Assembly: GCA_026991575.1 (NCBI GenBank)
Contig: JALXBF010000096.1
Span: 1 to 58,258, forward strand
Direction of reading: 5' to 3'
Origin: Planctomycetota bacterium
GTDB taxonomy: Bacteria; Planctomycetota; Planctomycetia; JALXBF01
Length of the DNA: 58,258 nt
Numbering within the stretch: the first letter of the stretch is position 1; each line of letters starts with the position of its first letter. A model generated the notes under the pieces. That model searched no databases, was not told the origin of the DNA, and saw only the letters and a list, made by a program, of their open reading frames with translations. The position numbers and the translations under genes are program-made. Shown one piece after another: positions 18,234-50,870 of this stretch.

Positions 18234-19034
18234 ATGAATGCTGTTCCGGTGCCACAGGCAAGAGGCGAATCGTCGCAGGGGGAGCTGCCCCGCTACGAGG
18301 CAGCGACCGGCAGGATGCGGCGGGAGCGTCTCAGGCTCGGCGCCAACCTGGCCCGGCTTGCGATCTCGATTGCTAACCCCTACCTTCCACGGCCACGGTC
18401 ACAGTGCATCGTGCTCGACTGCGGCTGTGGCTACGGCCAGACCACACTGGGACTGGCTCGCCTATGTGCCCACGTGGTCGGTTGCGACCCGTGCGCGTCA
18501 ATGGTTGAGGAAGCACGCAGGTTGCAGCGAGCCGCAGGGGTGGCCAACGCCGACTTTCTCGTCTGCTCTGCAGACCAGGTGCCGGACCGGGACCGCTACG
18601 ACCTCGTGCTGCTCGATAATGTGCTGGAGCATATCCCGAACCAGGAAGAATCCCTGCGAGCGCTACGGCGCGCGTTGCGTTCCGACGGTGTGCTGCTGAT
18701 CATCGTGCCCAATCGGCTCTGGCCGATTGAGGTGCACTATCGGCTGCCATTCCTGTCGTACCTGCCGCTCCCCCTGGCGAATGCCTATCTTCGGCTCACG
18801 GGCCGAGGCTACGACTACTCCGACGCATCCTATGCGCCAACGTACTGGCGGCTGGAACGCCTGCTTCAGACCACGGGTTTCCGCAGATGGGAGTATGTCA
18901 TCCCTGGTGAATCGACGCTGCAGTGCACGATGGCTGGTGGGCCGTGGCATTACCGAATCGGCGCGCGGTTACTGAAACGCTTTCCCATGTTGTGGGCGAT
19001 CGCAAAGGCGTTTGTCGTGGTGGCGTGGAAGTAG
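18234..19034 (+). CDS. Class I SAM-dependent methyltransferase
   Basis: VLDCGCGYG motif I, NVLEHIP and GVLLIIVPNR motifs. Confidence 0.9.
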   Translation: MNAVPVPQARGESSQGELPRYEAATGRMRRERLRLGANLARLAISIANPYLPRPRSQCIVLDCGCGYGQTTLGLARLCAHVVGCDPCASMVEEARRLQRAAGVANADFLVCSADQVPDRDRYDLVLLDNVLEHIPNQEESLRALRRALRSDGVLLIIVPNRLWPIEVHYRLPFLSYLPLPLANAYLRLTGRGYDYSDASYAPTYWRLERLLQTTGFRRWEYVIPGESTLQCTMAGGPWHYRIGARLLKRFPMLWAIAKAFVVVAWK

Positions 19035-19388
19035 CCATTGAGTCGCAACGCGTGTGCGCATCACCGGAGACGGCCGATGGTGGCGTCCGTGTTACTTGTT
19101 CGGACACGTTGCCTGTGCCAGGTCGCCCGGGTGGGCCACCAAGCTCCGGCACATGGGTGTGTGCGGGTCGCTGCGGGGGTAGGCCCTGTGCAGACCTGCG
19201 GGCATTGACTGGAAAGGACGGGCCCCTTCGGCACTCTGGCACTCGTGCTCCGACGCGAGTATCCGGGACAGGGGTAGGGCCTGTTGCCGGCCCGCTCGCC
19301 AGCCCACTCGAGCGACAGGCGCGTAGATGGCCGTTCGATCAGGTGGCTCTGTAGCCGGGCAAGGGAGGATCCACACCAGGAGCAGGCC

Positions 19389-28909: not shown

Positions 28910-29638
28910 ATGTTGGGCCGTCTGGTGTGTTGGCTAAAGTCGCTTGCTGGTCGTCCGAGCGCTGAACATACAGAGTCGGTGCCGGAGCCGGTACGTTGCG
29001 CGCCGGTTGAGGTGCTTGCCCCACTGGCCGGTGACGACCCCGTTGAGCGGGCCAAGTTGCTCGTGCGGCTCGCTGCCCTGGCCGTGAAGGCGTCCACCCG
29101 GTCGGAAGAGGCTCTAGAAGAGCGGGACCGTGCCTCGCTGACGGCGCTGGTCAGCCTGGCACGCAGCGAGGCGTTGGAGGCCGGGATGGGCTTCGGTGAG
29201 TGGACCGAGGCAGCGTTCGAGGGGGAGGTGCTGCTGGACGGAGAGGATCGCCGCGCTACCGCCGAGCTGCTGGTGGCCCTCGACCTGGTGATCTCAGGCC
29301 TCAAGGACACTGAGGACGTGCCAGCGGGACGAAGTGCGGATGTGGCCGCAGGGCCGGACCTTGAGGACCACTCCCTTGGACCGCTGGCTCGGGTCGGCTG
29401 CGCGCTGGTTGGAGCAGACCGCTGGCCTGAACTAATCGCGGTTCGAAGGGCTGCGGCCCAATGGGAGCCGTGGCAAGCCCTCCGACGCGACGTGCTCTGG
29501 GAGCGGCTATTCATGACAGACGACGACCCGGATCCCTCCACCGGGGGACTCATGCCGCTAGCCGAGCGTGCCGCACGCCGGCGGGCGGCCTCCGGCGACC
29601 ACCCTCTGCCCATCGGTACGTTCGTCGCACACGCGTGA
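28910..29638 (+). CDS. Hypothetical acidic all-alpha protein
   Basis: Protein-like A/L/E/R-rich composition from ATG 28910 with GGAG upstream. The upstream ORF extension looks non-coding. No family recognised. Confidence 0.6.
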   Translation: MLGRLVCWLKSLAGRPSAEHTESVPEPVRCAPVEVLAPLAGDDPVERAKLLVRLAALAVKASTRSEEALEERDRASLTALVSLARSEALEAGMGFGEWTEAAFEGEVLLDGEDRRATAELLVALDLVISGLKDTEDVPAGRSADVAAGPDLEDHSLGPLARVGCALVGADRWPELIAVRRAAAQWEPWQALRRDVLWERLFMTDDDPDPSTGGLMPLAERAARRRAASGDHPLPIGTFVAHA

Positions 29639-30497
29639 GCGGCGGCGACCGTGCCACACGGGGCTGCGCAGACGACCAACCGCTGACCGACATGCTGCGC
29701 GCACTGAGGTGCAGCCTGCTGGAGCTGGTTCTGGCGGGTCCCCCGGTGGCCAGTTCGGGGGTAGCCCGCCGGAACGGTCCCCGGCTGCGCAGGCCGAACT
29801 GTTGAAGCCAGCGGATGCGTTTACCGTGCTTGCGGAGGACCAGGTGCAATGACCCGCTGGAAAGAAGCCGGAGCTACCGCATTGGGGGGTTCGCATCCGC
29901 TGGATTGCCTGGCCCAGCACGGATCCTGTGCAGGAGGGACTGGTCACTGCAACGCAGGTACGCCGACCCGCACCGCAGCGGAGCGTGTTGTGGCCGCCGG
30001 TGGTGCCACCCAACAGCTTTAGCGGCGGCGCCAGGATGGATGCCGGCCGCGTCGAGAGGCTGCCGGGTGTCACACAGACGTGTCCGTAGATTCGCCCCCC
30101 GCCTCGGAGCTCTGGCTGCAGCGCTAACCGCCTCTGAACCCAACGCGGCGCCATCACACCTGCCACTGGCACCCGGTCCATAGCAGCGGACCTGGTATCG
30201 TTAGCCCTATCGACCTGGTGGGCCGACTGGCGCCAGTCCCTTGTCTCGTCGTCGCATCTCTCTGTCCGGTGGCCGGACACGCTAGACGCCACCCAATCGC
30301 CGGCCTCAGGTTGTGTGCCCTGTCCACGTCGCTCTTGGTTTTTTCCTGTGGACACTCCTTCAGCACACACTGACAGGGCGCGCTGATCGCCCGTAGAGCC
30401 GCGTCCCATTGCTCTGCCCGGGTAGTTCGCCGATCCTGTTGCACCGACCTGCTGCTTCCAGGTCCGTGGCGTGAAGCGTTCCGATCGTGCAGCCTGT

Positions 30498-31127
30498 CCT
30501 CCGCTACCACTCTCGTTCGATAGGTGGGTACGGGCTCAACGTTGTGGTGTACCAATTCGACGGCCGGTCGGGGTTTCAATCCCATCGTGGTTCGATTGGT
30601 CGGTGCGAGCTTCATGAAAACTTTGGTTTTGGAGAGGATTTGTATTGGTTTCAATCCCATCGTGGTTCGATTGGTCGGTGCGAGCTTGAGAAGGTGCTCG
30701 ACGAGCTCGAGGGTGCCGGCGGTTTCAATCCCATCGTGGTTCGATTGGTCGGTGCGAGTTTTTGGAGGAGTGCTATGAAGCTCGAAAGTATATTCGTTTC
30801 AATCCCATCGTGGTTCGATTGGTCGGTGCGAGATGTCTACAATGTTTCACACAAGAGATTGTTAGTTACGTTTCAATCCCATCGTGGTTCGATTGGTCGG
30901 TGCGAGGGGGAAGCGGGGTGGCGGAGATTAAGCTCCGAACGGGCGTTTCAATCCCATCGTGGTTCGATTGGTCGGTGCGAGAACGAAAAACCTGTAGTTA
31001 TATTTGGATTGCCTAGGAGTTTCAATCCCATCGTGGTTCGATTGGTCGGTGCGAGGAGGAGAAGCCAGTAATAGTGTTTGGGGCGCCTAGGTTTCAATCC
31101 CATCGTGGTTCGATTGGTCGGTGCGAG
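30498..31127 (-). CRISPR. CRISPR array: 8 identical 37-bp repeats plus 1 degenerate trailer repeat, 8 spacers of 35-38 bp
   Basis: Plus-strand repeat GTTTCAATCCCATCGTGGTTCGATTGGTCGGTGCGAG starts at 30573, 30648, 30722, 30796, 30870, 30945, 31019 and 31091. Degenerate copy at 30498-30534 (23/37 matches). On the minus strand the repeat has a short ATCG/CGAT hairpin and ends in ATTGAAAC, the class 1 8-nt handle, so it is transcribed from the cas2 side. Confidence 0.98.
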
Positions 31128-31400
31128 GCACCTCAGCGCAACTGGCGACGTAGCAATCGGTTGTGATCGGTTTTGCCCGGAGCTCGCGAACCAGCCGCTG
31201 CGAGAGCGCCGGCTGCGCGCGGGCGCCGTCGCATCCTATTGCCAAACAACTGGTTGCGGTTGCCCGCAGGTGGGCCATTTTCGGCCGCGCCAGAGGTGCG
31301 GGCAACAGGGCGCCGGCCGGCCAGCCAGCGGCAGGACAAGGCCGGACGGCGACAACGCACACAGGATCACTTGTCCGGACAAGATGCCGCACCTGCAGCC
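31128..31400 (-). promoter_or_regulatory. CRISPR leader
   Basis: Non-coding stretch between cas2 and the first intact repeat, opposite the degenerate end. Contains CAA-N4-TTG motifs at 31154-31163 and 31247-31256. Extent approximate. Confidence 0.65.
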
Positions 31401-31607
31401 TCCACCCATCCTAGCTAGTGCCGCGGGTAGCGACAAGGAGGTCCGAGGTCTCAGAAGCGCGGTCGCTCAAGCCGTGCGACGGGGGCCGGGACAGAGCTGC
31501 CAAGAGGCGGGAGCAGCCGGGGCGGGCGTGCCGCCGCGAAGAGGAGCTGCGGATGCCCAGCAGGCATCCGTTTGGTCCGGGGCGCAGCATCGCGCGCAAC
31601 CACCCGC

Positions 31608-31997
31608 TCAGCGATCCTCCTCATCGGTGCTGGCACGTGAAGCCGAGCGACCGGGGACGAGCCGCAGGCCGTCAGCCCCGGCCGACGCTATGGCGGCGTC
31701 CGGGCAGAGCCAGCCCGGCAGACCGCGGCATCGTCCGAGAAAGGTTTCTTCCGAACGCAGCTGCCACGCTTGCACGACATCGGCTCTCAGGTCCATCACC
31801 GCGGCAGCACTGTCCAACAGCGCTTCCAGCTCACGTACCGTGCCGCGGAACAAGAACACCGACCGCTGCGTGCGCAACGCGTACCGCTCCATCACACGGG
31901 CAACCCGCTGCAACCGCCTGGGATCGGCGATGTCATAGGCAACCACGAACATTGCCATCCGCTTGTCTCCGTGCTGTTGACCGGTGGTCTCTGTCAC
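31608..31997 (-). CDS. cas2: CRISPR-associated endonuclease Cas2
   Basis: FVVAYDIADPRRLQRVARVMERYALRTQRSVF motif. GTG start overlaps the cas1 stop (alternative ATG 31958). Confidence 0.95.
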   Translation of the reverse strand: MTETTGQQHGDKRMAMFVVAYDIADPRRLQRVARVMERYALRTQRSVFLFRGTVRELEALLDSAAAVMDLRADVVQAWQLRSEETFLGRCRGLPGWLCPDAAIASAGADGLRLVPGRSASRASTDEEDR

Positions 31998-33136
31998 GAC
32001 TGAGCCGGCTGAGAATCTGGGCCCCGTGCCGACCGTGCCGGCGGGCGGCGGTCGAGGTGACGGAGAAGTTGGAAAAACCTTTCGATCTCGTTGTTAACAC
32101 GCCGACTGTGGTCGTCGCGACTCCAGGCTGCTTCCCATTGGGCTAGGACTCGAGAGAACGCGGCCGGACTTAGGATTACGCCGCCCTCGGGCCCTCGGCG
32201 AAAATCACCCGGGGCCACGATGCCGGTGTTGCATAGCCTCAAGACCCAGCGATCCACGATGCGCACCCGGAGCGGTTCGATCAGGTCACAGGCCAGTGCG
32301 GGACGGCCAGGTCGCGGCTCGTGCAAGGCGCCCAGAGCTACCTCCAGGCCCGCCGCGCGACAGCGTGCGACCAGACGCGACGTCAGCAGCGTGTACCCAA
32401 GGCTCAGCAGGGCGTTTACGGGGTCCCGCGGCGGCCGGCGATTCCGCCCGTGGAACGACCATGGCCGCTGGAGCCGCTCGCCCAAGATCCGAAACCAGAC
32501 CGCCGCCGCCGATCCCTCGATCCCCAGCAGTTCACCATGACTCGTGGCCCGGTCGGCTGCCTGACGGAACCGCCGTAACTCGCCGACCAACGCCCCGGTT
32601 ACGCCCCCGTGGCGTTGGAAGTAGCGTGCCGCCTCCAGCTGTGAAGCGATCTTGCGGACGACGACGTCCTGAGCAAGCACGAACTTCGCCTCCGGACGGC
32701 CGAGCACTCGGTACTGCATCAGCCTGATCGTGACGCTACCGTCTACCGGGGGCGCCAATAGACCACGAAGCCGAACGCCGCGGTAGGAAAGGAACGCTAC
32801 CAGAACGTCGTTCAACAACAGTTCATGCACCGCTGCGTCCGTTACCCCGACACGGCCGTAGCAGAGCACCAGCTCCAGCGGACGCAGATCGAGCGCAAGC
32901 TGCACTCCCTCTGCCGTCGCAAACGCTACCCGACCGTTAATCACCTTCAGCGTGCCCGGACCGACCAAGTGCGCGACGGGTGTTGCTACCACCTTCGGCC
33001 GACGCCTCGGACCGCTCTGCGTTTCCCGTGCTCTCATGGCCCGTACCCGACTGTTCCTGGCGTTGCCGCTTCTTCCACCGATTGCGGCGCTCCCGCTTAC
33101 GCCGCGACCCGTTGTGCCGTGCCCCTGTGCCTTCAT
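31994..33136 (-). CDS. cas1: CRISPR-associated endonuclease Cas1
   Basis: LLGIEGSAAAVWF, RNRRPPRDPVNALLSLGYTLL, GALH and ALACDLIEPLR motifs with catalytic E/H/E intact. Start may be ATG 33037. Confidence 0.95.
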   Translation of the reverse strand: MKAQGHGTTGRGVSGSAAIGGRSGNARNSRVRAMRARETQSGPRRRPKVVATPVAHLVGPGTLKVINGRVAFATAEGVQLALDLRPLELVLCYGRVGVTDAAVHELLLNDVLVAFLSYRGVRLRGLLAPPVDGSVTIRLMQYRVLGRPEAKFVLAQDVVVRKIASQLEAARYFQRHGGVTGALVGELRRFRQAADRATSHGELLGIEGSAAAVWFRILGERLQRPWSFHGRNRRPPRDPVNALLSLGYTLLTSRLVARCRAAGLEVALGALHEPRPGRPALACDLIEPLRVRIVDRWVLRLCNTGIVAPGDFRRGPEGGVILSPAAFSRVLAQWEAAWSRDDHSRRVNNEIERFFQLLRHLDRRPPARSARGPDSQPAQS

Positions 33137-34787
33137 TCCGCTTCGTGTCGGCGGCCTCCTCCTGATCCGGTCGCATCAACGCCGGCGATTCCGGTTTCCG
33201 CTGCCGCGACGCCGGTACGTAACGGATCACCGGATCCGGTACGGCTGGACCGGCCGGCATCGTGGCTTCTGGCGGGGACGGCGGCAGTAACGCGGCCACG
33301 CCGAGGTCGTCGTCTTCCTGCCGTGGCTCGGCAAGCGACCCATCCGCCGTCACCTGCTCGGGGACCATCCAGGCCGGTTTCACGACCACGTTCTCGTAGC
33401 GGTGTGGTCGCAGCGTTCCTAACACCGTAAGCTGCACGCCGTCGACCTCCCAGGTGCGGAACCCGCCCGGAAGTCGTACCAGATGGCGTTTCCGCAGCTC
33501 GGCCCTGCTGAGGCCGAGCACCGTGCGCAGCAGACGCTCCACGCGGCCGAACACGTGATCATCCACGTCCAGGAAGACCTCATGAGCGTTCAGCGTCGTA
33601 CGGTACACACCAGCCCACTGCTTTAGCGTCGTGTTAAGCGACTTGATCCATTGCCCCAGATCAAACGCACTGGCCTCGATCCGTTCGCTCGGAGGCATGG
33701 TCATCTCGTCAATCTGTTCGATCAGTTCCAGGACCCGCTGCTCGGGAACCTCGCACGCGTATCGCGTGCCCTCAAACCACGGTTTCCGCCGCGGCACGAA
33801 CCGCAGCCCGAGCCACTCGAATCCGTTATCCGCCCGGCTGTACCGCCACCACCGCGCCGTCGTTCTGAGCCGTAGCTTCCGCGCAGCCCGGTGCACGGTG
33901 TGCAATGCCCGCCACATTGACCGTCGCGTGCCTGCGATGAGCAGGAGATCGTCAGCGTACCGGAAGAAACTGACGGTGCCTTCCGAGGCGGCCAGCTGGC
34001 CCAATGCTTCGTCCATCGGATGCAGGTACAGATTGCACAGCAAAGGCGACAGCGGGCTTCCCTGCAGAATGCCGACGTGACGAGGGGAGAGCCACCCGAT
34101 TCGCTTCGCCCCGGCGTATAGGACGGTCTTCACTAGTGCCAGGAAGCGACCATCTGAGACGCGATCGCCGAGCATTCCAAGCAGGAGGTCAACGTCGATC
34201 GAGCCAAAGCAGTCCCGCACGTCAACCTTGGCGACCCAGGCAACGTTAGCAGGCGAGAGGTTACGATCGGCCAGCGCACGGCACACCATCGCAGCGGCTC
34301 GGGCTACCCCCTGGCCCGGGCGGTACCCGAAGCTACGCCGATCGAAGGTCGGCTCAAGCACCGGTTCCAGCACCTGCTTCAGCGCCGCATGCACGATTCG
34401 ATCACGCACGTTCAGCAACGTAAGCGTGCGGATGCCACCGGTGCCATCGTCTTTCGGCACGTCGAACTGACGGTACGGGCCGGGGCGGTATTCACCCCGC
34501 ACGAGCTGCTCTGCTAACTCCTCCAGCACGATCCCGATCCGTGACGCTAGCTTCGCGCACGTCTGCCCGTCAGGGCCGGGAGTGTCGGCGCCGTCGGAGC
34601 GTGCGACGCGGTCCCAGGCAGCTAGCAGGTTCCTGCGGTCCGTCAACCGGGCCATCATGTACTTGGCAGGACGACGGCCGTAGTTGGTCTTCAAGAAGAT
34701 TTCGCGCTGCAGGTCAGTAAGGTCCTCTTTCACGTTGCTGCGAGTAACCGGTCTAACCCTTTCCTCAAACAGTGAGACCGTAACCAT
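32937..34787 (-). CDS. CRISPR-associated reverse transcriptase (group II intron-type RT with thumb/X domain)
   Basis: NLLAAWDRV..TPGPDG, PK..G..R, RDRIVHAAL, SFGYRPG, VDVRDCFGSID, GILQGSPLSPLLCNLYL, RYADD and FEWLG motifs. AGGAG RBS. Directly upstream of cas1. Confidence 0.93.
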   Translation of the reverse strand: MVTVSLFEERVRPVTRSNVKEDLTDLQREIFLKTNYGRRPAKYMMARLTDRRNLLAAWDRVARSDGADTPGPDGQTCAKLASRIGIVLEELAEQLVRGEYRPGPYRQFDVPKDDGTGGIRTLTLLNVRDRIVHAALKQVLEPVLEPTFDRRSFGYRPGQGVARAAAMVCRALADRNLSPANVAWVAKVDVRDCFGSIDVDLLLGMLGDRVSDGRFLALVKTVLYAGAKRIGWLSPRHVGILQGSPLSPLLCNLYLHPMDEALGQLAASEGTVSFFRYADDLLLIAGTRRSMWRALHTVHRAARKLRLRTTARWWRYSRADNGFEWLGLRFVPRRKPWFEGTRYACEVPEQRVLELIEQIDEMTMPPSERIEASAFDLGQWIKSLNTTLKQWAGVYRTTLNAHEVFLDVDDHVFGRVERLLRTVLGLSRAELRKRHLVRLPGGFRTWEVDGVQLTVLGTLRPHRYENVVVKPAWMVPEQVTADGSLAEPRQEDDDLGVAALLPPSPPEATMPAGPAVPDPVIRYVPASRQRKPESPALMRPDQEEAADTKRNEGTGARHNGSRRKRERRNRWKKRQRQEQSGTGHESTGNAERSEASAEGGSNTRRALGRSGHAEGD

Positions 34788-34870
34788 CGGCGCTGGCTCC
34801 TTCTGGTGACGATCCGACCGTTTCTCTCGGCTGGCTGCGGTGCCTGCTCTTGAGGTGGCAGTCCTATTTG

Positions 34871-34900
34871 ATTTACTGTCCTGGGGGTGGAAACCTGACA
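34871..34900 (-). promoter_or_regulatory. Candidate ECF-type promoter TGTCAG-N18-GTAAAT for RT-cas1-cas2
   Basis: Minus-strand TGTCAG at 34900-34895, 18-nt spacer, GTAAAT from 34876, about 85 nt before the RT ATG. Confidence 0.55.
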
Positions 34901-35076
34901 GCTTGACGAGAAAATCCGGCAGCCCAGCGAAAGGCGAGCCCGTCGTCGTCCTGACCTGCTGAGGGCAGGATCTGGCCGGCTGGTCTTATGGAACATGGAC
35001 GGATGCGTTCGGACAGGGGCGTCGTCCGGAAGGCTACGGCCTGCGGAGCGGGTTGCCCGGACGTTATTGCTGTTCG

Positions 35077-36318
35077 CTAGCGGACGGGGTCCCAGGGCTT
35101 CCACTGGCCGGTCTTGTCGGGAGCTTCCAGGATGGGACGGCGGCCACGCGCCAGCGCGGCGGAGAGGAGCTCAAGCGGGACGTACGCGACCCCTTGCTCG
35201 CCGACATACGCTTCCACCTCGGCCAGCCGGACCGGCATACCGACCAGCTCCGGTGCGGGATCCCCCGGGGTGACCAGCTCCTCGGCAACGGGGCTGGAAT
35301 CCAGGGCTATGGCAAGCGCGACCCTGCGCAGCTCCAGCGGCAGTCCCCGCCCGAGCCGCGCCAGGTCGTCGCGCCATTGGACAATCGCCACATACTGGCG
35401 GTCCGGGCTGGCCCACTTGACTCCTTCCATGACCTGCGGCGTACCGGCGGGCGCCGCGGCCAGCGCAACTCCCTCAGGGGGCCTGCTGCGAGCCTGCTCT
35501 GCCGCAGCCTGGTACGCGGCCACCAGCTCCTGCAACCGCTGTACGACGACCCTTTGCTCCCACAGGGGCGAGCCAACCAGCAGGTGCGCCGGCGGCGGGG
35601 GGGGCGGTCCGGAAAGGAAACGTTCGCAGCGCACGACCTCTTCCAGCAGCGGTACGAACTTGCCCAGTGTACCGACCAGTTCGTCCCGGTTGGGGTCGGA
35701 CGCTTCAACAACCGCGCGGACATAGCGTTCCAGCGGCAGGAATAGGTCGGACGATTCAGTTAGTGCGTGCCGCGCCAGCTCCAGGGGCTGCTCCACGGCC
35801 GCAAGCTCTCGACCTCCCCCACCTGGGGCCGACCGAGCTACAGCCAAGACCAGCTCGGCATCGTCCAGGTCATCAAGCAGTGTCATTGCCCAGTGCGCGT
35901 CCGCTTCGCCTTGCTCGACCGCCTGCTCGTGCCACTCTTGCCATTCCCGCAGCCAGCCGGTCGGCCGCATCACGTCCAGCGCCATGGTGGCCAGTTCGCC
36001 CAGGCGCTCATGCATGGTTTCTTCGCACCGACGCAAGCCGGCCTCCTTGGCCGCGTCGCTGAACCACTCAAAACCATGCTTCGGTACAGACGTGCCGAAG
36101 GCCGCTGCTATGTACTCGTCACGCGTGCGCCTGAGCCGGGCCCAGGCTGCGAGCAGCTCGTAGGCCACTTGCGGATCCGAGGTGTCAGCAGCGGGCAGCA
36201 ATTCGAAGAACCAGTCGGCCCATTCTGCAACCAGCGGCAGCGGATCGACCGGTTCAGAGAGTTCGGCCAACTGCCGAAGCACACGCTGCAGCCTTTCGGC
36301 GATCGTTTTCGTGTCCAT
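35077..36318 (-). CDS. Hypothetical 413-aa protein, candidate anti-sigma / Csx30-like
   Basis: Clearly coding. Acidic helical N-terminal region (LLDDLDDAEL), poly-Pro linker, ALAAA motif and short beta-rich C-terminal region. Lies between the ECF sigma and the RT. Function inferred from context only. Confidence 0.6.
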   Translation of the reverse strand: MDTKTIAERLQRVLRQLAELSEPVDPLPLVAEWADWFFELLPAADTSDPQVAYELLAAWARLRRTRDEYIAAAFGTSVPKHGFEWFSDAAKEAGLRRCEETMHERLGELATMALDVMRPTGWLREWQEWHEQAVEQGEADAHWAMTLLDDLDDAELVLAVARSAPGGGGRELAAVEQPLELARHALTESSDLFLPLERYVRAVVEASDPNRDELVGTLGKFVPLLEEVVRCERFLSGPPPPPPAHLLVGSPLWEQRVVVQRLQELVAAYQAAAEQARSRPPEGVALAAAPAGTPQVMEGVKWASPDRQYVAIVQWRDDLARLGRGLPLELRRVALAIALDSSPVAEELVTPGDPAPELVGMPVRLAEVEAYVGEQGVAYVPLELLSAALARGRRPILEAPDKTGQWKPWDPVR

Positions 36319-36582
36319 CGCTGTCGTCTCTGCTGAGTCTGCCTTCCCTGGTTACCACCTGGCGGCCGGCGGCATGGCCATTCCACAACCATCAGGCCGC
36401 AGCCTGCCGAACGATCGAGCGACGGGCTACAGGCGATGCCGTGCTCGATCGCGCCGTGTCGGTCCCGTGAAGCCTGGCGCAGCGGGTGCGACCTTGGCGG
36501 ATACGGTCGCCCTGCGGGCCGGACGCGCCGGGCGCCGCAGAGCCCTCAGAGGCAACGGTCCCGCCCGGTGTCCTGCTACGAA

Positions 36583-36612
36583 AAGGACACAGCGTCCGGA
36601 TTTTTTCTGACG
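36583..36612 (-). promoter_or_regulatory. Candidate ECF-type promoter CGTCAG-N18-GTCC
   Basis: Minus strand reads CGTCAG AAAAAATCCGGACGCTGT GTCCTT, about 265 nt upstream of ATG 36318. Weaker match than the other three. Confidence 0.4.
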
Positions 36613-37177
36613 GAACGGGCGGGGGAGAACGTTCGGGAGCGATGCGACCGTGCCGAAAAGCAACCCTCGATGCCGGAAGGCGTGTCTCAGGACCAGGCGA
36701 GGACGTTGCCGCGCGCCGCTGCAGATGCTCGCGCGCACCGGCTCGTCTGCCACCCCTGTTCACCTACAGTTTAGGTTTCCTCGCCTGTCCCGACCACACG
36801 GTGCGTGCGCCCTAATGTCTGTGCCAGACAGCATACGACGGGGGGGCACCGAAGCAGGCGGCCGCCACGCCACCGTAACCGGGCCGGTGAACACGTGCGG
36901 GTAACACCGGTCCACGTCGGTACGCAACGGTATGGGCCTGGTGACCCGACTCGGGCGCGCACGGAAGACGCTACTCGGATTGGCTGATGACTCGGCCTCC
37001 ATGTGCTTCCCGCTGCGGTTAGCAACGCACATGTGCTGCCCGTTAAGCCAACCGGCCCCCCGCCCGCTTCGTTGCCGGATACGCGTCGCAAGTTGACCCA
37101 GGACAATGTCATGTCAGAAAGCGCTAGGGCTCTCATGGTCAGGGGAGGTTCAGAGCCGCGCGGCATGGCGAGTGTCG

Positions 37178-38170
37178 CTAAGGTGGTGCCGGGAGTTCAT
37201 CGCGAAAGACCACATGGTACCAGAACGTCCAAGCCATTGCCGACGCAGCGTCCCGGAGCTCATCCGGAGGGAAGTCTTCGTTCACAGTCTCGGCCAGCGC
37301 CTGGCGCATCCTGCGTATCCATTGATACCAGGTGGCCGGCGACGCCTTTGCTTCGGGGACCAGTTGCGTGACCACCGCGGTTACCGTGCGCTGGCCCACC
37401 CGTCCCTGCCGACAGCAGTACCCTTGCCAAGCCCTCCAGACCGTGGCAAGTTGGGGCCAGCCGTCCTTGGGCCGAAGGGCCTCGACGGTGCTGTCCCACG
37501 GTACGGCGTCTGCCACCGTTTGGCCGATGTCGGCATGAAGGACGGTTTCCCGCTGGCAACCGCTGAGCAGCATCTGGTAAAGTCGGGTACGGAAGAACAG
37601 CCAGTAGACGGCGACGTAATCGATGGCACGTCCCCGCCGTTCGCTAAGTTGAGTGGCTGCCCAGCGGTGGCAGTGCGTCAGTTGGCGCACCAGTTGCCGC
37701 CATCGGGCAGACGCGGCCGCCGGCGGCTCGTGTTCGGCGTCGGGTATGACGGAACAGCGGGCGAGGGCAACCTCGGGTGGCACGTTACCGTTGCCCAGTT
37801 CGGACATTCGCCTGGTGCGTTTGCCGCCCCTGCTACGCTGTCGCAGCTGGGTGCGCATCCGGTTTTGGGCCACGGTTACGATCCAGCCTTTGGCATCGTC
37901 GGCGGAGCGCCTGACGTTGGCGGGCAGCTTGCCCAGCCAGATCTGTAGCAGAACGTGGTTGGCTGCGTCAGACACGTATTCCGGGTCGTTTTCCGGTGGC
38001 TGACAGCTGTTCTCGATGTGGCGGTGGACGAGTTGATACAGCTCGAGTAAGGCTGCACCGTCACCCTGCTCGGATCGGGCGACCAACAAGCGGAAGTCGT
38101 CGCCTGACGGCGGTATCCCCTGCGCAACCACGTCCAGACGGCCCCGAACAAGCTCCGGTGGAGGCACCAC
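37178..38170 (-). CDS. Atypical ECF (sigma-70 group 4) sigma factor
   Basis: LVARSEQGDGAALLELY, DAANHVLLQIW and WIVTVAQNRMRTQLRQR (region 2), plus a distal SPATWYQWIRRMRQAL helix like region 4.2. Start uncertain (GTG 38170 or 38131). Confidence 0.75.
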   Translation of the reverse strand: MVPPPELVRGRLDVVAQGIPPSGDDFRLLVARSEQGDGAALLELYQLVHRHIENSCQPPENDPEYVSDAANHVLLQIWLGKLPANVRRSADDAKGWIVTVAQNRMRTQLRQRSRGGKRTRRMSELGNGNVPPEVALARCSVIPDAEHEPPAAASARWRQLVRQLTHCHRWAATQLSERRGRAIDYVAVYWLFFRTRLYQMLLSGCQRETVLHADIGQTVADAVPWDSTVEALRPKDGWPQLATVWRAWQGYCCRQGRVGQRTVTAVVTQLVPEAKASPATWYQWIRRMRQALAETVNEDFPPDELRDAASAMAWTFWYHVVFRDELPAPP

Positions 38171-38397
38171 GTGACAGACCCCTGCACTATAGCAGAGTCG
38201 CGCCGCGTTCAGCAACCCGCTGTCTGTCTGCGGGTCCGACGGACGGCTTGTCCCGGGAGGCGGCGAGCGGGGTCCCGGGCTAAGAAGTGTAGCCGCGTCG
38301 CCAGGGGGGCAGAGCTTTCGCCGGCCGAACGCCCAACGCGCCGCGCCGGGTAACAGCAGCCTCGAGTCCTGGGCAGCACCCCGATCCAGGTGGCCGA

Positions 38398-39522
38398 TCA
38401 AGCGGTTGTGGCAGGCAGGAGCCAGATGGGCTGCGCTATGCCCGGGTCGCGGCGCAGGGCCATGTCGATCCACAGTCGGAATTCCCAAACCACGCTCACC
38501 AGTTGTCCCTCATAGCTTGCCGGGCCGTCTGGCAAGGTCAACTCGAAGCGGTAGCGGTGCGGGCCAGCCGGGATGGGCCCCTCATGCAGCCGTCGCTGCC
38601 AGAGCTGCTGTTGCTCTGGGTCGGCCTTTCCCTTCGTGTACCAGAGCAGCTCCAGCAGGAGGCCCCTGGCCTGGACCGGCTCGACTGCGTCCACCACGAC
38701 CTCTCCGGCAATCGGCTCGCCGGCCACGTAGTAGCACGGCCGGTCCAGTCGGCCCGGTTCTAGCTTGATTGCCAGCTCGCCGCCGCTCCAGGGTCTGAGC
38801 ACACGCTCCTGCATGGTGGCCGTTGTTGGCAGTGGGCACCCGGGTGGCCGCTCAGGTAGAACCGTCAGTTCGAACTCTTCATGCACGTCCGGCCGGCCCG
38901 GCACAGCGACCTCGTAGGTCAGCAACCACTCGATCCGGCTCCGCTGTCCGCGGAATGAGTGCATAGCGTTTGGGGGAATTTCTAGCTCCGCAATCACTCG
39001 CACCAGTTTGCCATCCTGGGCAGGATTCGGTTCCACGTGTTCCTGTTCGTGGAACACGTGGTCTTCGACACGGACGTGCTTGCCGCTGGCGTAGATTGCC
39101 AGCTCTCGGCCAACGAGCCGCAGGCTGGCCTTAGAGATGGCCGGCGTGTTTCTGAGTTCCTGGCCGGCGACGGCGCGAAATCGGTCACCGGGACGAAGCG
39201 GGTGCCGGGACAGAACGAGCTTCGCGGGACCAAACATACGCGCCAGCATCGTTTGCCGTGCAACCAGGAACACGGCCAGCGCCGGGCCGAGCGCCAGCGA
39301 TACGACGGCAGCCAGCGCGAGGAGCGCCAGGCCCAGGACGCTGTTGCGGAGCAGGTCAGCCAGCAGCGACCGCCACATGGCAACCAGGCCGACGAGGACG
39401 ATCAGGTCCCAGGTGGCGGCAGCGGCAAGCGCGGCGACGACTAGCCGCCGACGATCCTGACGGGGGCTGAGGGGGACATCGAGCTGAGGTGACTGGCGGC
39501 GAGGGAAGTATTCCTGGGTCAT
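38398..39522 (-). CDS. Two-TM membrane protein with tandem arrestin/SpoOM-like beta-sandwich domains
   Basis: Two N-terminal TM helices, then a repeated domain (IPPNAMHSFRGQRSRIEWLL and LPDGPASYEGQLVSVVWEF). ATG 39522 follows GGAG. Confidence 0.6.
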   Translation of the reverse strand: MTQEYFPRRQSPQLDVPLSPRQDRRRLVVAALAAAATWDLIVLVGLVAMWRSLLADLLRNSVLGLALLALAAVVSLALGPALAVFLVARQTMLARMFGPAKLVLSRHPLRPGDRFRAVAGQELRNTPAISKASLRLVGRELAIYASGKHVRVEDHVFHEQEHVEPNPAQDGKLVRVIAELEIPPNAMHSFRGQRSRIEWLLTYEVAVPGRPDVHEEFELTVLPERPPGCPLPTTATMQERVLRPWSGGELAIKLEPGRLDRPCYYVAGEPIAGEVVVDAVEPVQARGLLLELLWYTKGKADPEQQQLWQRRLHEGPIPAGPHRYRFELTLPDGPASYEGQLVSVVWEFRLWIDMALRRDPGIAQPIWLLPATTA

Positions 39523-40162
39523 GAGCGTGGTGCTCCGAGTACGTGTCAACGCTTCGCATATGCCGGCGGGCTGCGCCGGTGTCGGGCACGTGCCATTGCC
39601 TGGTCGCGGCATGCGACGTGCGTACAGCATACCAATTCGCGCGGCGCGCTTGCCCGGGGGGATGTCGGAGGATGAGCCCGTTCAGGTTCTGCGCGCACGG
39701 CGATGGCTGGCTTGCCAGAAGCGGCGGTGTTGAGCGGCTGCGTGGACTGCGTTTCAATGGGCGTGCCAGCATTGACGTTGACTCCTCGCACGGCGTCCGC
39801 AGTCGGCGCCCCTTGGCGTTGGGGGACGGGTAGGCCTGTGTCTGCACGTGCCGGAACACCTAGGCAAAGTGGGGGGACGGATCCAAGAGGCTGCGGTACG
39901 GTACGGCGGGTGACAACCCGCTGCCTGGGTCTGGCGAGCAGGGTAGCGGAGCTTGATGTCGGAGCCTGCGGGGGGCGCGCGGAACCGTCCGGGGGGCGTT
40001 GCCAGATGGTCGGGGACCGGGTGATGTCAGCGGACGTGGCGAAGGACGAGCGTTTGTGGGGGGGCATTAGTGGCTCGGTCCAGTGCGTTGTCGCTGCTGG
40101 TTTCAGCGTCGGCGCTTCTCTCGCCCGCTCTGCCACCGGCACAAACGCCAGGGGGGTGGTGG

Positions 40163-40204: not shown

Positions 40205-40397
40205 TTGGTAGGTGTGGCCCGAAGCGGGTTCCTGCCGGCCGCGTTCCGGCGGCCGGTGGGCTAAGAGGGAAGACGGTGAGAATCCGTCGCGGGGCCGCCG
40301 CTGTGTTCGGCGAGGTCCGGCCCACGATGCCACTGGGAGCCACGCTCCTGGGAAGGCGGGTTCGGACCGCTTGAGCCGTAAGCCAGAAGACCTGCCC
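40205..40397 (+). ncRNA. Cobalamin (B12) riboswitch
   Basis: Conserved blocks AAGAGGGAA-GACGGTGAGAATCCGTC, CCGCCGCTGTG, GCCACTGGG, CTGGGAAGGC and B12 box AGCCAGAAGACCTGCC, in canonical order. Confidence 0.93.
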
Positions 40398-40572
40398 GCT
40401 TCGGTCGGTTGTCTCCAGGGGTGTCTCGCGCCGGGCGCCCGGAGGCAAGGAGCATGCGCTGCTGCAGGCCGGTCGGATACGCTCCGGCCACGGCCTCTCT
40501 GCGCCCAGGTCCTTACCTTCCGGAGGCCCGGTGCGGCTGCCGTGCCCGCGCCGGCACAGGAGGTAAGCGACC

Positions 40573-41406
40573 GTGAAACCTACTGTCCGCCTTCGTCGCG
40601 CATGCGGCATCACGCTGATCGAATTACTCGTCGTCATTGCCATCATCGCCGTACTGGCCGCTCTACTGTTGCCTGCCGTTCAACACGCTCGGAGCGCTGC
40701 CCGGCGGGCTCAGTGCGCATCCAACCTGCATCAGTTTGGCATCGCCCTCCATAGCTACGCCCAGGTGTGGAACGATCACCTGCCGCCGGTCTCCACCTGG
40801 GACTGGATGGATCCAAAGTCGGAACAGCGCTACTGGTTTGGGCTCGTCTTGGATCCCCCCTGGGTACCGGCGAACGAGCGGCGAGTTGACGTCAGCGAGG
40901 GGTTCCTCTGGCCCTACCTTGGCAAGCACAAGGGCGTGATGCTGTGTCCGGAATTCCAACCGTCCCGGCTGCAGTGGCGGTTCCAAGGGGCCACGGCCGG
41001 CTATGCGTATAACTACATCTATCTGGGACCGGGCATCTGGCGCGACTGGCGCACCGGTCAGCTGACGCGACCGGTTACGGTCCGCCGTGCCCAAATTCGT
41101 CAAACGATGAACACGATCGCCTTTGCCGACAGTGCCCGCGTGCGGTGGTGGGGATTCGGGGCAAGCCCGCAGGAACCGGTTGCTGAGGAAAACTATTTCC
41201 TCGACCCGCCCAGCAGCAATTACTCCACGGTGCACTTTCGCCACGACGGGCTGGCCAACGTGCTGTTCCTGGACGGGCATGTCCGGCCGCTGAAGCCGAC
41301 GATCCGCAAGATGCCTGCCTGGTGGCCCGAACCGGCCGACCGGCTCCGTTACGAATTCAATATCTTCGACATCGGTACGGACGACGAGCTGTGGGACCAG
41401 TACTGA
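40573..41406 (+). CDS. DUF1559 / prepilin-type N-terminal methylation domain protein with H-X9-DG motif
   Basis: [51 protein letters not shown] and [25 protein letters not shown]. Confidence 0.92.
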
Positions 41407-45200: not shown

Positions 45201-46605
45201 CGTAACCTTAGCCGCTTACGTGGATCGAAAGCTACAAGAGGATGCGTTCCGATGGACGTTGCGCCGCGAGCAAGGCTTGATGCTGCCACTGGGCGTGAAG
45301 TGGCAGCAGGACTGGGGCCAGGGCGCGAAGGTGCTGCTGGCCGAAGGGACACCTCCGGTGGGCATGAAGCCGGTCTTCTTCGTCCAGCGAACCCGCTCGC
45401 TGGCCTGTGTCGATGCGCTGACCGCCAGTGAAATGTGGCGGCTGCCAACGACCACGGCCGTACGCTGGGCCGGTTTCGTGGCCGACAAGCTCGTCGTCAC
45501 CGATGATCGCCGTGTCGTGGCCGTGACCGTTGCCGACGGTACCGTGGCGTGGAGCCATGAGTTTGCGGCGGAACGGTCCGTGGCAGGACCGTTGCCGAGG
45601 GGGTATGAGCTGGATGAAGCCCCAGGCAACCGCCGCTTACAGGCTCGGCTAAGTCCACGACCGGGCCGCGCGCAGTGGGCTGCGGGCGAGCCACCTAGTT
45701 TGCGGGTCTGCGGTTTTGCCGATGATCGGCTCTATGTGTTGAGCCCCGGGGGTGAGCTGGTGGCGCTGTCGGCCGCGAAGGGCACTCAGCTTTGGGCATT
45801 TCGGCCCACGACCGGCCGGCTGGGCGAACACGTGGCCGTCAGCCCGCGGCTCGTGGTGGTCCAGAACGTGGCTGCCAATCGGATCCTCGTACTTGACTCC
45901 GACGGCCGCGTCCGCTGGGAGCTGGACGGCGCCGGTGGCCAGTGGGCACGCGATCCGGTTTGGGTCGATAGTAGACGAGTCTGTGCCGTGACTGCTTCGG
46001 GCACCGCCCAGCTGATCGACGTCGATACCGGACAGCTCGTCTGGGAGTACTCGGCTACAGGGCTGCTGGGCCGCACGCCACGGGTGATTGTCGGCCCAGG
46101 CCGAACGCTGTGTTTGCTTGTGGGGGCGGAGTTGCGGCGGCTTGATCCGGAGACGGGCGATGTGCTCTGGAGCGTGACACTGGCGCATGCCCCGCTGGCA
46201 CGCGACGATCACGTCTGGCTGATCGATCGCTATCGCTTTTACTGCGTGACACGCACCGGCGCACTGAGTGCCCGATCCCTGGACGATGGCCGGCTGTTGT
46301 GGCAATACTTGTTGACGGGGGCATACGGCGGCAGCACTTCGGCCTATGGCCGCACCGCGTGGCGGCTTGCCCGCTCGGGCCAATACCTTGTGGCCTACCC
46401 CGCCCGCGCGCAGCGGCCCCAGACGCTGGTGCCCTTGGTGGTTGTCGTGGCCGACAGCGGAAAGCTCGTGCAGCGTCTGGCGTTGACGGCAACGGGGGCC
46501 CAACTGGAGCTTGCCCTGGCCGGCTCCGTGGCGCTGCTTCGCTCGCCCACCGCCGTACTGCTGGTGGCCCGAGACGACGCATGGTTTCAGCTTGCAGAGG
46601 AGTAG
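42247..46605 (+). CDS. Large secreted PQQ-like beta-propeller / TPR protein
   Basis: Signal peptide. Repeated D..TG...W propeller motifs in two blocks separated by TPR-like helices. ATG 42247. Confidence 0.85.
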
Positions 46606-46609
46606 CCGT

Positions 46610-47707
46610 ATGAGTTCGGTAGAGCGGAATGAAGCGGCTGATACGCAGGCGGCGAGCGGCAAGGATCTGGAGGCGATTCAGCGGTTGGCCAGGGCGTACG
46701 AGCAGATCCGCTCGGAGCTGAGCCGGGTGATTGTCGGCCAGCACGAGGTCATCGAGCAGCTCATGATCGCGATGATCTCACGTGGCCACGGCTTGCTGGT
46801 CGGCGTGCCCGGCCTGGCCAAGACGCTTATGATCCACACTCTGGCCGACACGTTGAACCTGTCGTTCAACCGAATCCAGTTCACTCCGGACCTGATGCCC
46901 GCCGACATCACCGGCACGGAGATCGTCCAGGAGGACAAGGCGACAGGCCAGCGCGTGTTCCGCTTTCTGCGTGGTCCCATCTTCGCAAACGTCATCCTGG
47001 CGGACGAGATCAACCGCACGCCCCCCAAGACCCAGGCCGCGCTGTTGGAAGCGATGCAGGAGCACTTTGTGACCGTCGGCGGGGAGCGGCATCGATTGCC
47101 CGAACCGTTCTTCGTGCTGGCCACCCAGAACCCGATTGAACAAGAGGGCACCTATCCGCTGCCCGAAGCTCAGCTGGACCGGTTCATGTTCATGATCCAT
47201 GTCGGCTACCCGAGTGAGGAGGAGGAATTCGAGATTGTTCGGTTGACGACGGGCGATCGGGAGGTGAAGCTGACGAAGGTGCTGAATGCGTCCGACATCC
47301 TTGATCTTCAGCATATCGTGCGCCGCGTGCCGGTGGCCGACCATGTGATCCGCTACGCCTTGCGCTTAGTGCGGGCCACGCGGCCAGAACAGCCCGACGC
47401 GCCCGGGTTCATCAAGGAATGGGTTACCTGGGGGGCTGGTCCACGCGGCAGCCAGTACCTTGTGCTGGCCGCAAAGGCGCGCGCGGCATTGTACGGCCGC
47501 TGGCATGCGACAATCGATGACATCCGAGCACTGGCCGGTCCGGTGCTGCGCCACCGCATCATTACCAACTTCAACGCCGAGGCCGAAGGTGTGCGTCCGG
47601 ACGACATCATCCGGCGGCTGATCGAGACGATCTCGGTCGAGTCGGAAAGCAAAGTCGTGGCCGGTCGCATGGGACACGTGGTTGACACCAAAGAAAAAGC
47701 ATCGTAG
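46610..47707 (+). CDS. moxR: MoxR-family AAA+ ATPase
   Basis: GVPGLAKT Walker [48 protein letters not shown] 46610 follows GAGGAG. Confidence 0.95.
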
Positions 47708-47748
47708 TAGCTGCAACGCAAGCCCACCGACGGGTACCGTAGCAAGTC

Positions 47749-48669
47749 ATGGTCCAGCAGGACGAATACGTCGCGCAACTGAAAAAGTACCTCGATCCCA
47801 AGACCATTGCCCGGATCTCTGGCCTTGGGCTCCAGGCACGGCTCATCGTCGAAGGGTACCTCTCCGGCACGCACCGCAGCCCGTATCATGGGGTTAGCGT
47901 CGAGTTTGTGCAGCACCGCGAGTATGTACCGGGCGACGACATCCGGCACGTCGACTGGAAAGTGTGGAGCCGCACGGACAAGTACTACCTGAAACAATAT
48001 GAAGAAGAAACCAACCTGCGGGCCTACTTTGTGCTGGATGCGTCTGAGTCGATGAGCTACGCGTCCGGGGAGGTGACCAAGTTCGACTACGCGCGCTATG
48101 TGATTGCGGCCCTGTGCTACCTGGTGCTCCAGCAACAGGACTCGGCGGGATTGGTTGTGTTCGACGAGAGGGTGGAGCAGTACATTCGCGCCTCGAACCA
48201 ACCCAGCCACTTGAAGCAGCTGTTGCACATCCTGGAGCAGGCTCAGCCGCAGGGTAAAACTGCCCTGGGCAGCTCACTACATGATGTGGCCGAGCGGGTC
48301 GAGGGTCGCAGCCTGGTGGTGATTCTCAGCGACTTCTTCGGCGACGTCGACAGCCTGCTGAAAGGGCTTCAGCATCTGCGACATCGCAAACACGACGTGA
48401 TCGCTATGCAAGTGCTCGACGGTGCCGAACTGGACTTCCCGTTCCGCGACTCAACCCTGTTCGAAGGGATGGAGGAACTGCCCGACGTGCTGACCGACCC
48501 CCGGGCACTGCGCGCGGCGTACCAGCGCGAGTTCGGTGCGTTCGTCGAGCAGCTCGAACGCGGCTGTCTTGCCCGCCGGGTCGACTACGTCCGCCTCCGT
48601 ACCGACCAGCCGCTGGACGTTGCGCTGTCCAGCTACCTTGCCCATCGGAACAAACGCTTGCGCAGGTGA
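47749..48669 (+). CDS. DUF58 domain protein
   Basis: GVSVEFVQHREYVPGDDIRHVDWK, LDASESM and ILSDF motifs. Follows moxR. Confidence 0.93.
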   Translation: MVQQDEYVAQLKKYLDPKTIARISGLGLQARLIVEGYLSGTHRSPYHGVSVEFVQHREYVPGDDIRHVDWKVWSRTDKYYLKQYEEETNLRAYFVLDASESMSYASGEVTKFDYARYVIAALCYLVLQQQDSAGLVVFDERVEQYIRASNQPSHLKQLLHILEQAQPQGKTALGSSLHDVAERVEGRSLVVILSDFFGDVDSLLKGLQHLRHRKHDVIAMQVLDGAELDFPFRDSTLFEGMEELPDVLTDPRALRAAYQREFGAFVEQLERGCLARRVDYVRLRTDQPLDVALSSYLAHRNKRLRR

Positions 48670-48675
48670 GGCGCA

Positions 48676-50832: not shown

Positions 50833-50870
50833 CTCGTTTCGGACGCGGCGAGTGTGCCGGCGAGGAAGTG

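Follow-up and report, generated by a model that had tools for sequence, protein, structure and literature searches.

We analyzed a stretch of DNA of 58,258 bp (the window), which is the whole of contig C96 in the genome of a bacterium of the Planctomycetota (G000; 4.96 Mb in 191 contigs, estimated to be 97.8% complete). Its minus strand carries, all in the same orientation, a CRISPR array, cas2, cas1, a gene for a reverse transcriptase (RT), a gene for a protein of 413 amino acids that we call P, and a gene for a sigma-like protein of 330 amino acids that we call S (Table 1). A preliminary description of this DNA had listed these elements and their shared orientation, and each of them was found at or near the place it gave. 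Our principal new result is the wider context of S and P: both are members of a conserved cassette, S-M-P-Q, in which Q is a fusion of a Lon protease and a CARF domain. On balance, we read the region in the window as two joined units, an adaptation module and the sigma pair S/P. Below, G001 denotes a genome of the sister genus, and other G numbers denote related genomes that were searched.

Table 1. Features of the region in the window, and Q genes on other contigs of G000. Positions without a contig name are window positions; ORF, open reading frame.
Feature	Position	Strand	Size	Remarks
Degenerate ninth repeat	about 30498-30536	-		trailer end of the array; 3' half matches the repeat in ~15 of 20 bases
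CRISPR array	30573-31127	-		8 identical 37-nt repeats, 7 spacers of 35-38 nt
Leader	31128-31607	-	480 nt	proximal ~170 nt conserved with the leaders of three other arrays (MAFFT, four leaders)
cas2	31608-31997	-	129 aa	PF09827, E 2.2e-11, 44.2 bits (cut-off 23.8)
cas1 ORF	31994-33136	-	380 aa	PF01867, E 1.6e-68, 231.4 bits (cut-off 22.3); TIGR00287, E 2.9e-53
RT	32937-34787	-	616 aa	group-II-intron-like, low-complexity tail; RVT_1, E 6.9e-26
P-RT intergenic spacer	34788-35076	-	289 nt	no ORF of coding-type composition
P	35077-36318	-	413 aa	predicted sigma-binding, anti-sigma-like partner
S-P gap	36319-37177		859 nt	ORFs with noncoding patterns of GC by position; no credible gene
S	37178-38170 (ORF open to 38488)	-	330 aa	divergent ECF-like sigma: sigma2 and a helical C-terminal domain of ~180 aa
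Q gene	C115:47831-49480			beside a second full-length S-P pair
Q gene	C115:18155-19561			beside a weak P-like gene and a sigma2-only gene
Q gene	C183:32245-33666			~21 kb from III-B genes

S is a remote sigma factor of the extracytoplasmic function (ECF) kind, with a sigma2 domain that is clear at the level of profiles and folds. By itself, the protein scored 15.8 to 16.7 bits against Sigma70_r2, below the cut-off of 24, matched the NCBIfam SigK model at E 7.7e-4, far below the cut-off of that model, and found no relative in a word-indexed homolog search. A four-member S profile run against 1.84 billion proteins returned 206 representatives at E<=1e-3, 44 at E<=1e-10, and 12 at E<=1e-30, and Sigma70_r2 was matched by 22 of 60 aligned family members at E<=0.01 (best, 1.1e-10). 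When the 60-member profile was compared with the PDB, 20 distinct sequences appeared at E<=1. Every one of them is a sigma factor, with RpoE (2q1z, E 1.3e-11) as the best match and SigK (4nqw, E 5.2e-9) among the others, and these matches are confined to profile positions ~34 to 188, which is the sigma2 domain. An hhalign comparison of the S family with seven ordinary ECF sigmas of G000 gave a probability of 95.9 and an E value of 5e-9, again over sigma2 only. The AlphaFold model of S had a mean predicted local distance difference test (pLDDT) score of 83.3. Foldseek found no PDB match to this model at E<=0.001; an exhaustive fold search with VIA placed sigma factors on top, with sigB at Z 9.1 (156 residues aligned), SigW at Z 8.6 (root mean square deviation of 2.9 over 90 residues), SigI6 at Z 8.2, and AlgU at Z 8.0. 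The earlier call of S as a sigma factor therefore holds for the sigma2 domain in family profile, PDB matches, hhalign, and fold search, and RNA polymerase binding and transcription initiation by S are predicted from this similarity.

The C-terminal domain is the best-conserved part of S and is rich in invariant Trp and Pro residues. It may be an expanded domain that harbors a divergent sigma4. None of the 60 family members matched a sigma4 family, and the hhalign comparison gave no sigma4 alignment. Together with the strong conservation of the C-terminal domain, these results are what one would expect if S were no transcription factor but formed, with P, M, and Q, a protease-controlled effector, such as a toxin-like protein or one that blocks RNA polymerase, set free by cleavage. 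We consider this very unlikely, as whole-chain fold alignments of S to ECF sigmas extend to model residues 296 to 308 (296 to 303 for BldN, SigL, and SigH), and the last helices of several family members resemble a region 4.2 helix-turn-helix, a likeness seen by eye only that no tool confirmed. Further, CalpS, the corresponding protein of the closest known system (CalpL-CalpT-CalpS, compared below), acts as a sigma factor according to the available text of the reports on it (PMC11229360; 10.1101/2024.05.08.593097).

The model of P (pLDDT 86.5) consists of an alpha domain (residues 1 to 235), a disordered poly-proline linker, a long helix (251 to 278), and a beta domain (300 to 410). P matched no Pfam, NCBIfam, or PADLOC family. 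A profile search with P found no relative among PDB sequences (best E, 1.4), Foldseek found no PDB match to the P model at E<=0.001, and the VIA search with this model reached at best Z 5.9, to generic helical bundles, with no Csx30 or CalpT among the matches listed. The preliminary description had raised Csx30 and CalpT as possible relatives of P; in the PDB, neither the profile search nor the fold searches showed a likeness to either protein or to any solved anti-sigma, an absence of match that leaves a distant likeness possible. A search of a protein atlas with P had a best score of 0.78, below the useful range, and in a word-indexed search P alone and the P alignment each found one relative besides itself. 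P is also rare: within the order it occurs in 2 of 4 genomes, and a sample of 401 genomes from across the phylum had it in 2.

The position of P and the modeled complex both point to P as a partner of S. An independent P profile, made from seven sequences (from G000, from G001, and a database match), placed a homolog of P immediately next to S at 13 of the 16 S loci. In three runs, the model of the S-P complex scored 0.73, 0.74, and 0.75, compared to 0.00 for the best of 3 controls; a score of 0.74 is reached by 116 of 157 solved complexes and by 2 of 215 mismatched pairs. The runs agreed in at least 85% of contacts, with a pLDDT of 82 to 83 for the partner. The interface takes in residues 36 to 79 (sigma2 region) and 148 to 326 (C-terminal domain) of S and residues 119 to 139, 173 to 195, and 230 to 257 of P. 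Anti-sigmas likewise contact both the sigma2 and the C-terminal domain of their sigmas. Many sigma/anti-sigma complexes have been solved, so learned sigma surfaces may inflate the score of the S-P model, although P resembles none of the solved partners. The confident model supports binding of S and P, and the earlier suggestion that the 413-amino-acid protein is a sigma partner is strengthened by it and by the pairing of the two genes.

We mapped the S-M-P-Q cassette by searches of related genomes combined with six-frame and blast annotation. Sixteen S loci were counted, and the presence counts include ORFs assigned within the stretch of DNA examined at each locus. The family scan and this count exclude two weak or partial S loci, L078 (G483) and L079 (G482), of which L079 contains a weak S-like and P-like pair. 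M, of about 250 to 290 amino acids, is present between S and P in 9 of the 16 loci, P (about 350 to 445 amino acids) in 13, and Q (about 450 to 515 amino acids) in 12. M belongs to no family, and its profile had no match in the PDB, CalpT included.

Q is built, in this order, of an N-terminal domain, a Lon-type protease domain, and then a sensor domain. Its profile matched the LonB protease domain 1z0e at E 5.5e-9, in an alignment that spans both catalytic residues (Ser and Lys). A match at E 4.2e-8 was to the CARF domain of Csm6 (5fsh), with weaker matches to Cam1, Can2, Card1, and Crn1. The Ser-Lys catalytic dyad is invariant in all 12 Q sequences, 10 of which have the CARF motif D-x-T-P-G-x-K in intact form. 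The PADLOC model CARF_m2--CARF_LON (PDLC01981) matched Q of locus L030 at E 2.1e-70 over model positions 20 to 404 of 408 and a Q from G000:C115 at E 2.2e-67 over nearly the whole model.

Ten of the 16 S loci adjoin cas genes, which are III-A, III-B, III-D, Cas10 with RAMPs, cas1(-cas2), or I-G genes and mostly type III. In the window, the neighbors of S-P are RT-cas1-cas2 and the array. Effector genes adjoin the cassette in G285 (Cmr4 and Cmr6 directly upstream), G546 (Cas10), G722 (Cmr2, Cmr3, and Cmr4), G683 (Cas10 and RAMPs), and G771, where III-D RAMPs lie upstream and an MkoA-like helicase lies downstream. G670 has Csm1-4 and a I-G locus with cas4g/cas1g, and G667 has divergent type I-G genes cas3g, cas8g1, and cas7g. 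Adaptation genes are found at G288, where cas1 is divergent to S, and at G688, where a cas2-cas1 pair, with cas1 divergently adjacent to S, is accompanied by a TIGR02619 protein. On G000:C32, too, the gene immediately after the III-D effector genes encodes a P paralog, itself followed by an MkoA-like helicase. No cas gene was found in the DNA examined at the remaining six loci (G000:C115, G001:C213, G001:C285, G333, G642, and G430).

These six loci, and the abundance of ECF sigmas in Planctomycetota (the sigma2 part of the S profile is matched in 319 of 401 sampled genomes), would be in keeping with S and P being an ordinary stress-response ECF sigma/anti-sigma pair that neighbors CRISPR genes by chance. 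However, CARF domains are sensors of the type III signal, and a protease with such a domain is present at 12 of the 16 loci, in addition to the cas genes at 10 of them. We regard a chance neighborhood as extremely improbable.

Two side observations concern the cassette loci. In three of them, a superfamily 1 (SF1) helicase of 1,330 to 1,390 amino acids follows P or Q (L027 [G000:C32], 15082-19182; L030, 3281-7279; L074, 12634-16801), and in two of the three a further conserved protein follows the helicase. The L030 helicase matched PADLOC MkoA (Mokosh) at E 4.6e-104, and the L027 and L074 copies are 44 to 45% identical to it. At G288:C3 (L066, 9528-10670), the S homolog beside cas1 has one in-frame TAG within the match, and this gene may be broken.

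Of the four cassette genes, the window has S and P. Neither tblastn nor a six-frame search with hidden Markov models (HMMs) detected remnants of M or Q in the window, the S-P gap matched no Rfam family, and RT occupies the position that Q holds in a full cassette. The sequence closest to the window P is a database protein with 41% identity, followed by P of the full cassettes of G001 and G771 with ~34 to 35%. The presence of P proteins from full cassettes among its nearest relatives suggests that M and Q were lost from the window locus or were never brought along, and we lean toward reading the S-P pair as a reduced copy of the CRISPR-associated S-M-P-Q cassette.

A genome-wide HMM scan of G000 found three Q genes (Table 1) and one M gene, the latter on C170. 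The preliminary description had supposed a protease encoded elsewhere, and the Lon-CARF protease Q of the cassette, with its three copies on other contigs, is a candidate for it. Identity between the window S and P and the other S-P pair of G000 is only ~29%, which makes it uncertain whether a Q protein supplied in trans from the nearest Q cassettes would recognize the window P. The Q gene at C115:18155-19561 is part of a divergent second cassette (C115:18155-21809, minus strand) made up of a sigma2-only ECF-like gene, a weak P-like gene (E 1.4e-12), and Q (E 4.8e-67).

The missing M and Q genes, the 859-nt noncoding stretch in the place of M, and the fact that the arrangement is not kept in the sister genus could also mean that the window S-P pair is a decaying remnant of S-M-P-Q that has lost its protease and no longer signals, with its position beside RT-cas1 reflecting the usual clustering of CRISPR genes. 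We find this improbable. Both ORFs are intact and have coding-type GC patterns, both proteins gave confident folds (pLDDT values above), and so did their complex; M is absent at other loci too, for example, at G000:C115 and G001:C285, and three Q paralogs are available in trans.

The other unit, RT-cas1-cas2 with its leader and array, is by itself of an ordinary and already known type. Cas1 and Cas2 exceeded the curated domain cut-offs, as expected of an adaptation module. RT matched TIGR04416 at E 5.2e-64, under the model cut-off of 300 bits, the PADLOC RT model at E 6.4e-61, and the RT part of the Cas1_IIIb model at E 3.1e-39. It adjoins and overlaps cas1 in a different frame, and the two are separate ORFs and not a fusion. 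The true start of cas1 is probably near the ATG at 33037, as codon composition in a frame-wise GC profile changes frame near 33040-33010. The overlap of the two ORFs (32937-33136) is 200 nt, or ~100 nt with a cas1 start at 33037, and could reflect the split of a former RT-Cas1 fusion or a frameshift.

The array has the regular direct repeats and unique spacers of similar length that define a CRISPR array. On the minus strand (reverse complement), its repeat ends in ATTGAAAC, and therefore the array is read from the minus strand, which is the strand of the CRISPR RNA (crRNA). At the trailer end, a 36-nt spacer runs from the degenerate repeat up to 30572. The array is not a chance repeat, because the identical repeat builds three further arrays in G000, on C187 (20 repeats), C182 (16 repeats), and C47 (8 repeats); no cas genes were found beside these arrays in the flanking DNA examined. 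Since the three arrays carry the same repeat and leader, the module probably serves them as well. When compared with their own genome, the spacers gave a single 22-nt partial match.

We made several side observations at the arrays. Similarity between the two leader-proximal spacers of the window array (30982-31090) is ~82%, and between spacers 2 and 3 of the C187 array it is 97%; such near-alike spacers fit repeated uptake from variants of one target. A 2H-phosphoesterase (2'-5' RNA ligase/LigT family; PF13563, E 6.2e-38) encoded at C47 (L003) 1597-2190, ~700 nt from the array, might act as a cyclic-nucleotide phosphodiesterase. An IS1634-family transposase fragment (6602-7351) and a trypsin-like serine protease (7749-9458; PF13365, E 1.8e-14) are encoded at the trailer end of the C182 array (L002). 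Operons for a MoxR AAA ATPase, DUF58, and VWA/BatA proteins occur both in the window (46511-53270, plus strand) and beside the C187 array (L001, 2144-5910).

Family searches of the window proteins identified no cas genes on the 58-kb contig beyond cas1 and cas2. Elsewhere in G000, we found a III-B effector locus on C183 (Cmr2, Cmr3, Cmr4, and a Cmr6-Cmr1 fusion) and III-D effector loci on C27 and C32 (short Cas10, Csx10, Csx7, Csx19, and TIGR03986-type RAMPs), along with two more cas1 genes and two matches to the Cas6 family. The GGDD cyclase motif is preserved in each of the three Cas10 proteins. The window had been called effector-less, which is right for contig C96 and wrong for the genome; the accompanying idea of an effector encoded elsewhere agrees well with these type III loci and their cyclase motifs. 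A group-II-intron-like RT adjoining cas1, in a genome that also has type III effectors, is what defines an RT-associated type III module, and we judge it reasonably probable that RT-Cas1-Cas2, leader, and array form an autonomous type III adaptation module that serves the III-B and the two III-D effectors in trans. Such an arrangement, which the preliminary description had not recognized as a known one, has been reported: Silas et al. 2017 (PMC5513706) state that effector genes are missing from about half of RT-cas loci and that the RT module may work in trans with type III systems. Those modules share with the window a group-II-intron-like RT by cas1-cas2 and an array, with effectors absent locally and type III genes elsewhere; they differ in that the window RT and Cas1 are separate overlapping ORFs and have a sigma/partner pair directly upstream.

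The closest known system to the cassette is CalpL-CalpT-CalpS, reportedly described by Rouillon et al. in 2023. In the available parts of the reports on it, cyclic tetra-adenylate (cA4) activates a Lon-SAVED protease, the anti-sigma is cleaved, and the sigma is freed (PMC11229360; 10.1101/2024.05.08.593097). Both systems have an oligoadenylate-sensor domain fused to a Lon-type Ser-Lys protease (here the cassette Q proteins and the three G000 paralogs, none of them in the window), encoded beside an ECF-like sigma and a sigma-binding protein and adjoining type III genes. Q has its domains in the order given for CalpL, and in both the sigma is bound by its partner, a point that for S and P comes from the complex model score of 0.74 only. 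In contrast, the sensor of Q is a CARF domain and that of CalpL a SAVED domain, neither P nor M has a detectable likeness to CalpT, the cassette has a fourth conserved gene (M), and S has a large atypical C-terminal domain. The window locus differs further in having no protease gene and in that its S-P pair abuts RT-Cas1-Cas2. A SAVED family search of G000 gave no match, as it did in control genomes, and is hence uninformative.

Q also belongs with a family of predicted proteases, since the cassette Q proteins match the PADLOC CARF_m2 CARF-Lon model over nearly its full length. Steens et al. 2022 (PMC9704534) mention predicted CARF-Lon fusions and offer only the speculation that cleavage of essential or random proteins by them would kill the host; the word "sigma" occurs 0 times in that review. 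What sets Q apart from this family as described is its consistent linkage to a sigma-like gene and a sigma-binding partner, and the window has no member of the family. Among the accessory families of type III-A/B systems, a 2018 survey includes one named "Lon protease" (PMC6546367), and a supplementary table to the 2025 CRISPR classification has only CalpL (SAVED and Lon) under Lon (PMC12669027). In a full-text literature search, we found no paper linking CARF-Lon to a sigma factor, and neither an S-M-P-CARF-Lon cassette nor the linkage of such a pair with an RT adaptation module was described in the papers found, although paywalled papers or supplements could hold such a description. As far as this search shows, the CARF-Lon/sigma cassette context is new; the stand-alone RT-Cas1-Cas2 module is already known.

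Two further systems combine a sigma factor with CRISPR genes. In type III-E systems, with Cas7-11, Csx29 (TPR-CHAT), Csx30, and CASP-sigma, a CRISPR-activated protease is thought to free a sigma from its partner, going by the available text (PMC9825189, PMC10028731), and this scheme of protease release is the one proposed for the cassette. In contrast to III-E, no effector of that type was found: the III-E gRAMP model gave only partial matches far below the cut-off, to III-D RAMP proteins of G000. The genome has two CHAT proteins, whose genes are at distances of ~28 kb and ~63 kb from the C27 III-D locus, and the window has none. Of the components for which a search of the rest of the genome had been suggested, type III loci and two CHAT proteins are present, and no Cas7-11 was found; three Lon-CARF proteases are present as well. 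[quoted passage not shown] As there, an ECF-type sigma and its partner are encoded with a type III locus, whose expression DdvS/DdvA regulate. DdvA is membrane-bound and linked to an envelope-side signal in the text available, whereas the cassette has a cytoplasmic CARF-Lon protein that points to oligoadenylate, and the model of P, unlike the transmembrane DdvA, has a soluble-looking alpha domain and a beta domain.

By analogy with CalpL-CalpT-CalpS, we propose the following chain. A type III complex would bind target RNA, and its Cas10 would make cyclic oligoadenylate; this would bind the CARF domain of the Q protease, supplied for the window from C115 or C183; activated Q would cleave P; and freed S would join RNA polymerase and change transcription. 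The gene identities, the conservation of the cassette, its linkage to cas genes, and the S-P model score are observed, and the activation of Q by oligoadenylate, the cleavage of P, and the release of S are carried over from the analogy. The cassette context suggests that infection switches genes on. Joined with the reading of the region as two units, this chain is the best explanation we can offer, and we hold it to be a little better than evenly supported.

Which genes S would switch on is a separate matter. The preliminary description had proposed that S and P exist for inducible spacer acquisition, with infection freeing S and S directly switching on RT-cas1-cas2 and the array. The common orientation of S, P, RT, cas1, cas2, and the array fits this proposal, as do the absence of a minus-strand terminator-like site between P and RT, the place of RT where a full cassette has Q, and the divergent cas1 genes beside S in G288 and G688 (with cas2 as well in one of them). 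The P-RT intergenic spacer is a candidate promoter site for the adaptation genes; it has no sigma-70-type promoter. However, the sister genus G001 carries orthologs of RT, cas1, and cas2 (54%, 55%, and 66% identity), and the flanking DNA examined there, 8.3 kb upstream and 6.4 kb downstream, has none of S, M, P, and Q, so that the order of sigma gene, partner gene, RT, and cas1 is not conserved there, and the majority of cassette loci adjoin effector and not adaptation genes. No promoter motif common to the array leader and other intergenic spacers was found either. A conserved leader block (31253-31269), sought in the window with up to 3 mismatches, gave 2 matches, a number equaled in 20 of 100 shuffles; the block thus recurs in the window once, with 3 mismatches, no more than expected by chance. 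Scans of 29600-38600 gave no signal, with 0 promoter-like sites where 0.8 were expected and 4 terminator-like sites against an expectation of 5.3. Inducible acquisition as the purpose of S and P is therefore, in our view, unlikely, and activation of the RT-cas1-cas2 and array leader promoters by S is the weakest step that we consider, and a doubtful one.

Of the results given so far, several also weigh against the proposed chain as a whole: the sigma4 domain that neither family matches nor hhalign detected, the possible inflation of the complex score, the lack of likeness of P to known partners, the six cassette loci where cas genes were not seen, the absence of M and Q remnants from the window, the uncertain recognition of the window P by Q proteins from other contigs, the sister-genus cluster that does without the cassette, and the missing common promoter motif.

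The flanks of the region hold other features. Directly upstream of S (38398-39630, minus strand) is a gene for a 410-amino-acid protein with arrestin-N-like repeats (PF00339, E 7.2e-13); its ORF overlaps the long form of the S ORF, it has a 39%-identical paralog on contig C6, and none was seen at other S loci. An Rfam scan at gathering scores returned a cobalamin riboswitch alone, outside the region of interest (RF00174, 109 bits, E 1.8e-26; 40209-40413, plus strand). The riboswitch lies upstream of genes for a DUF1559/N-terminal-methylation protein (40573-41406) and a DUF6580 protein. Flanking genes of this sort, a DUF1559 gene among them, are in keeping with an origin in Planctomycetota.

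To our knowledge, two CRISPR routes from a protease to a sigma factor are known, CalpL/T/S and Csx29/Csx30, and the target genes of their sigmas are largely open. The cassette adds a third, CARF-based candidate, with P as a testable candidate for the substrate, and offers a possible function for the CARF-Lon family, which the papers we found treat only as a presumed host-killing protease. In the furthest-reaching form of the proposal, which we think unlikely, interference would feed back on adaptation: oligoadenylate would lead a CARF-Lon protease supplied in trans to cleave P, and S would then induce RT-Cas1-Cas2 and the four arrays with the shared leader, so that RNA-derived spacers and crRNA would be made mainly during infection, and the cassette would represent a second, CARF-based class of CRISPR protease-to-sigma signaling with an anti-sigma of new fold. 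The window is one natural locus in which a sigma pair lies directly before a module for the acquisition of spacers from RNA, and it makes RT-cas1-cas2 a concrete candidate target operon for the question of infection-induced acquisition.

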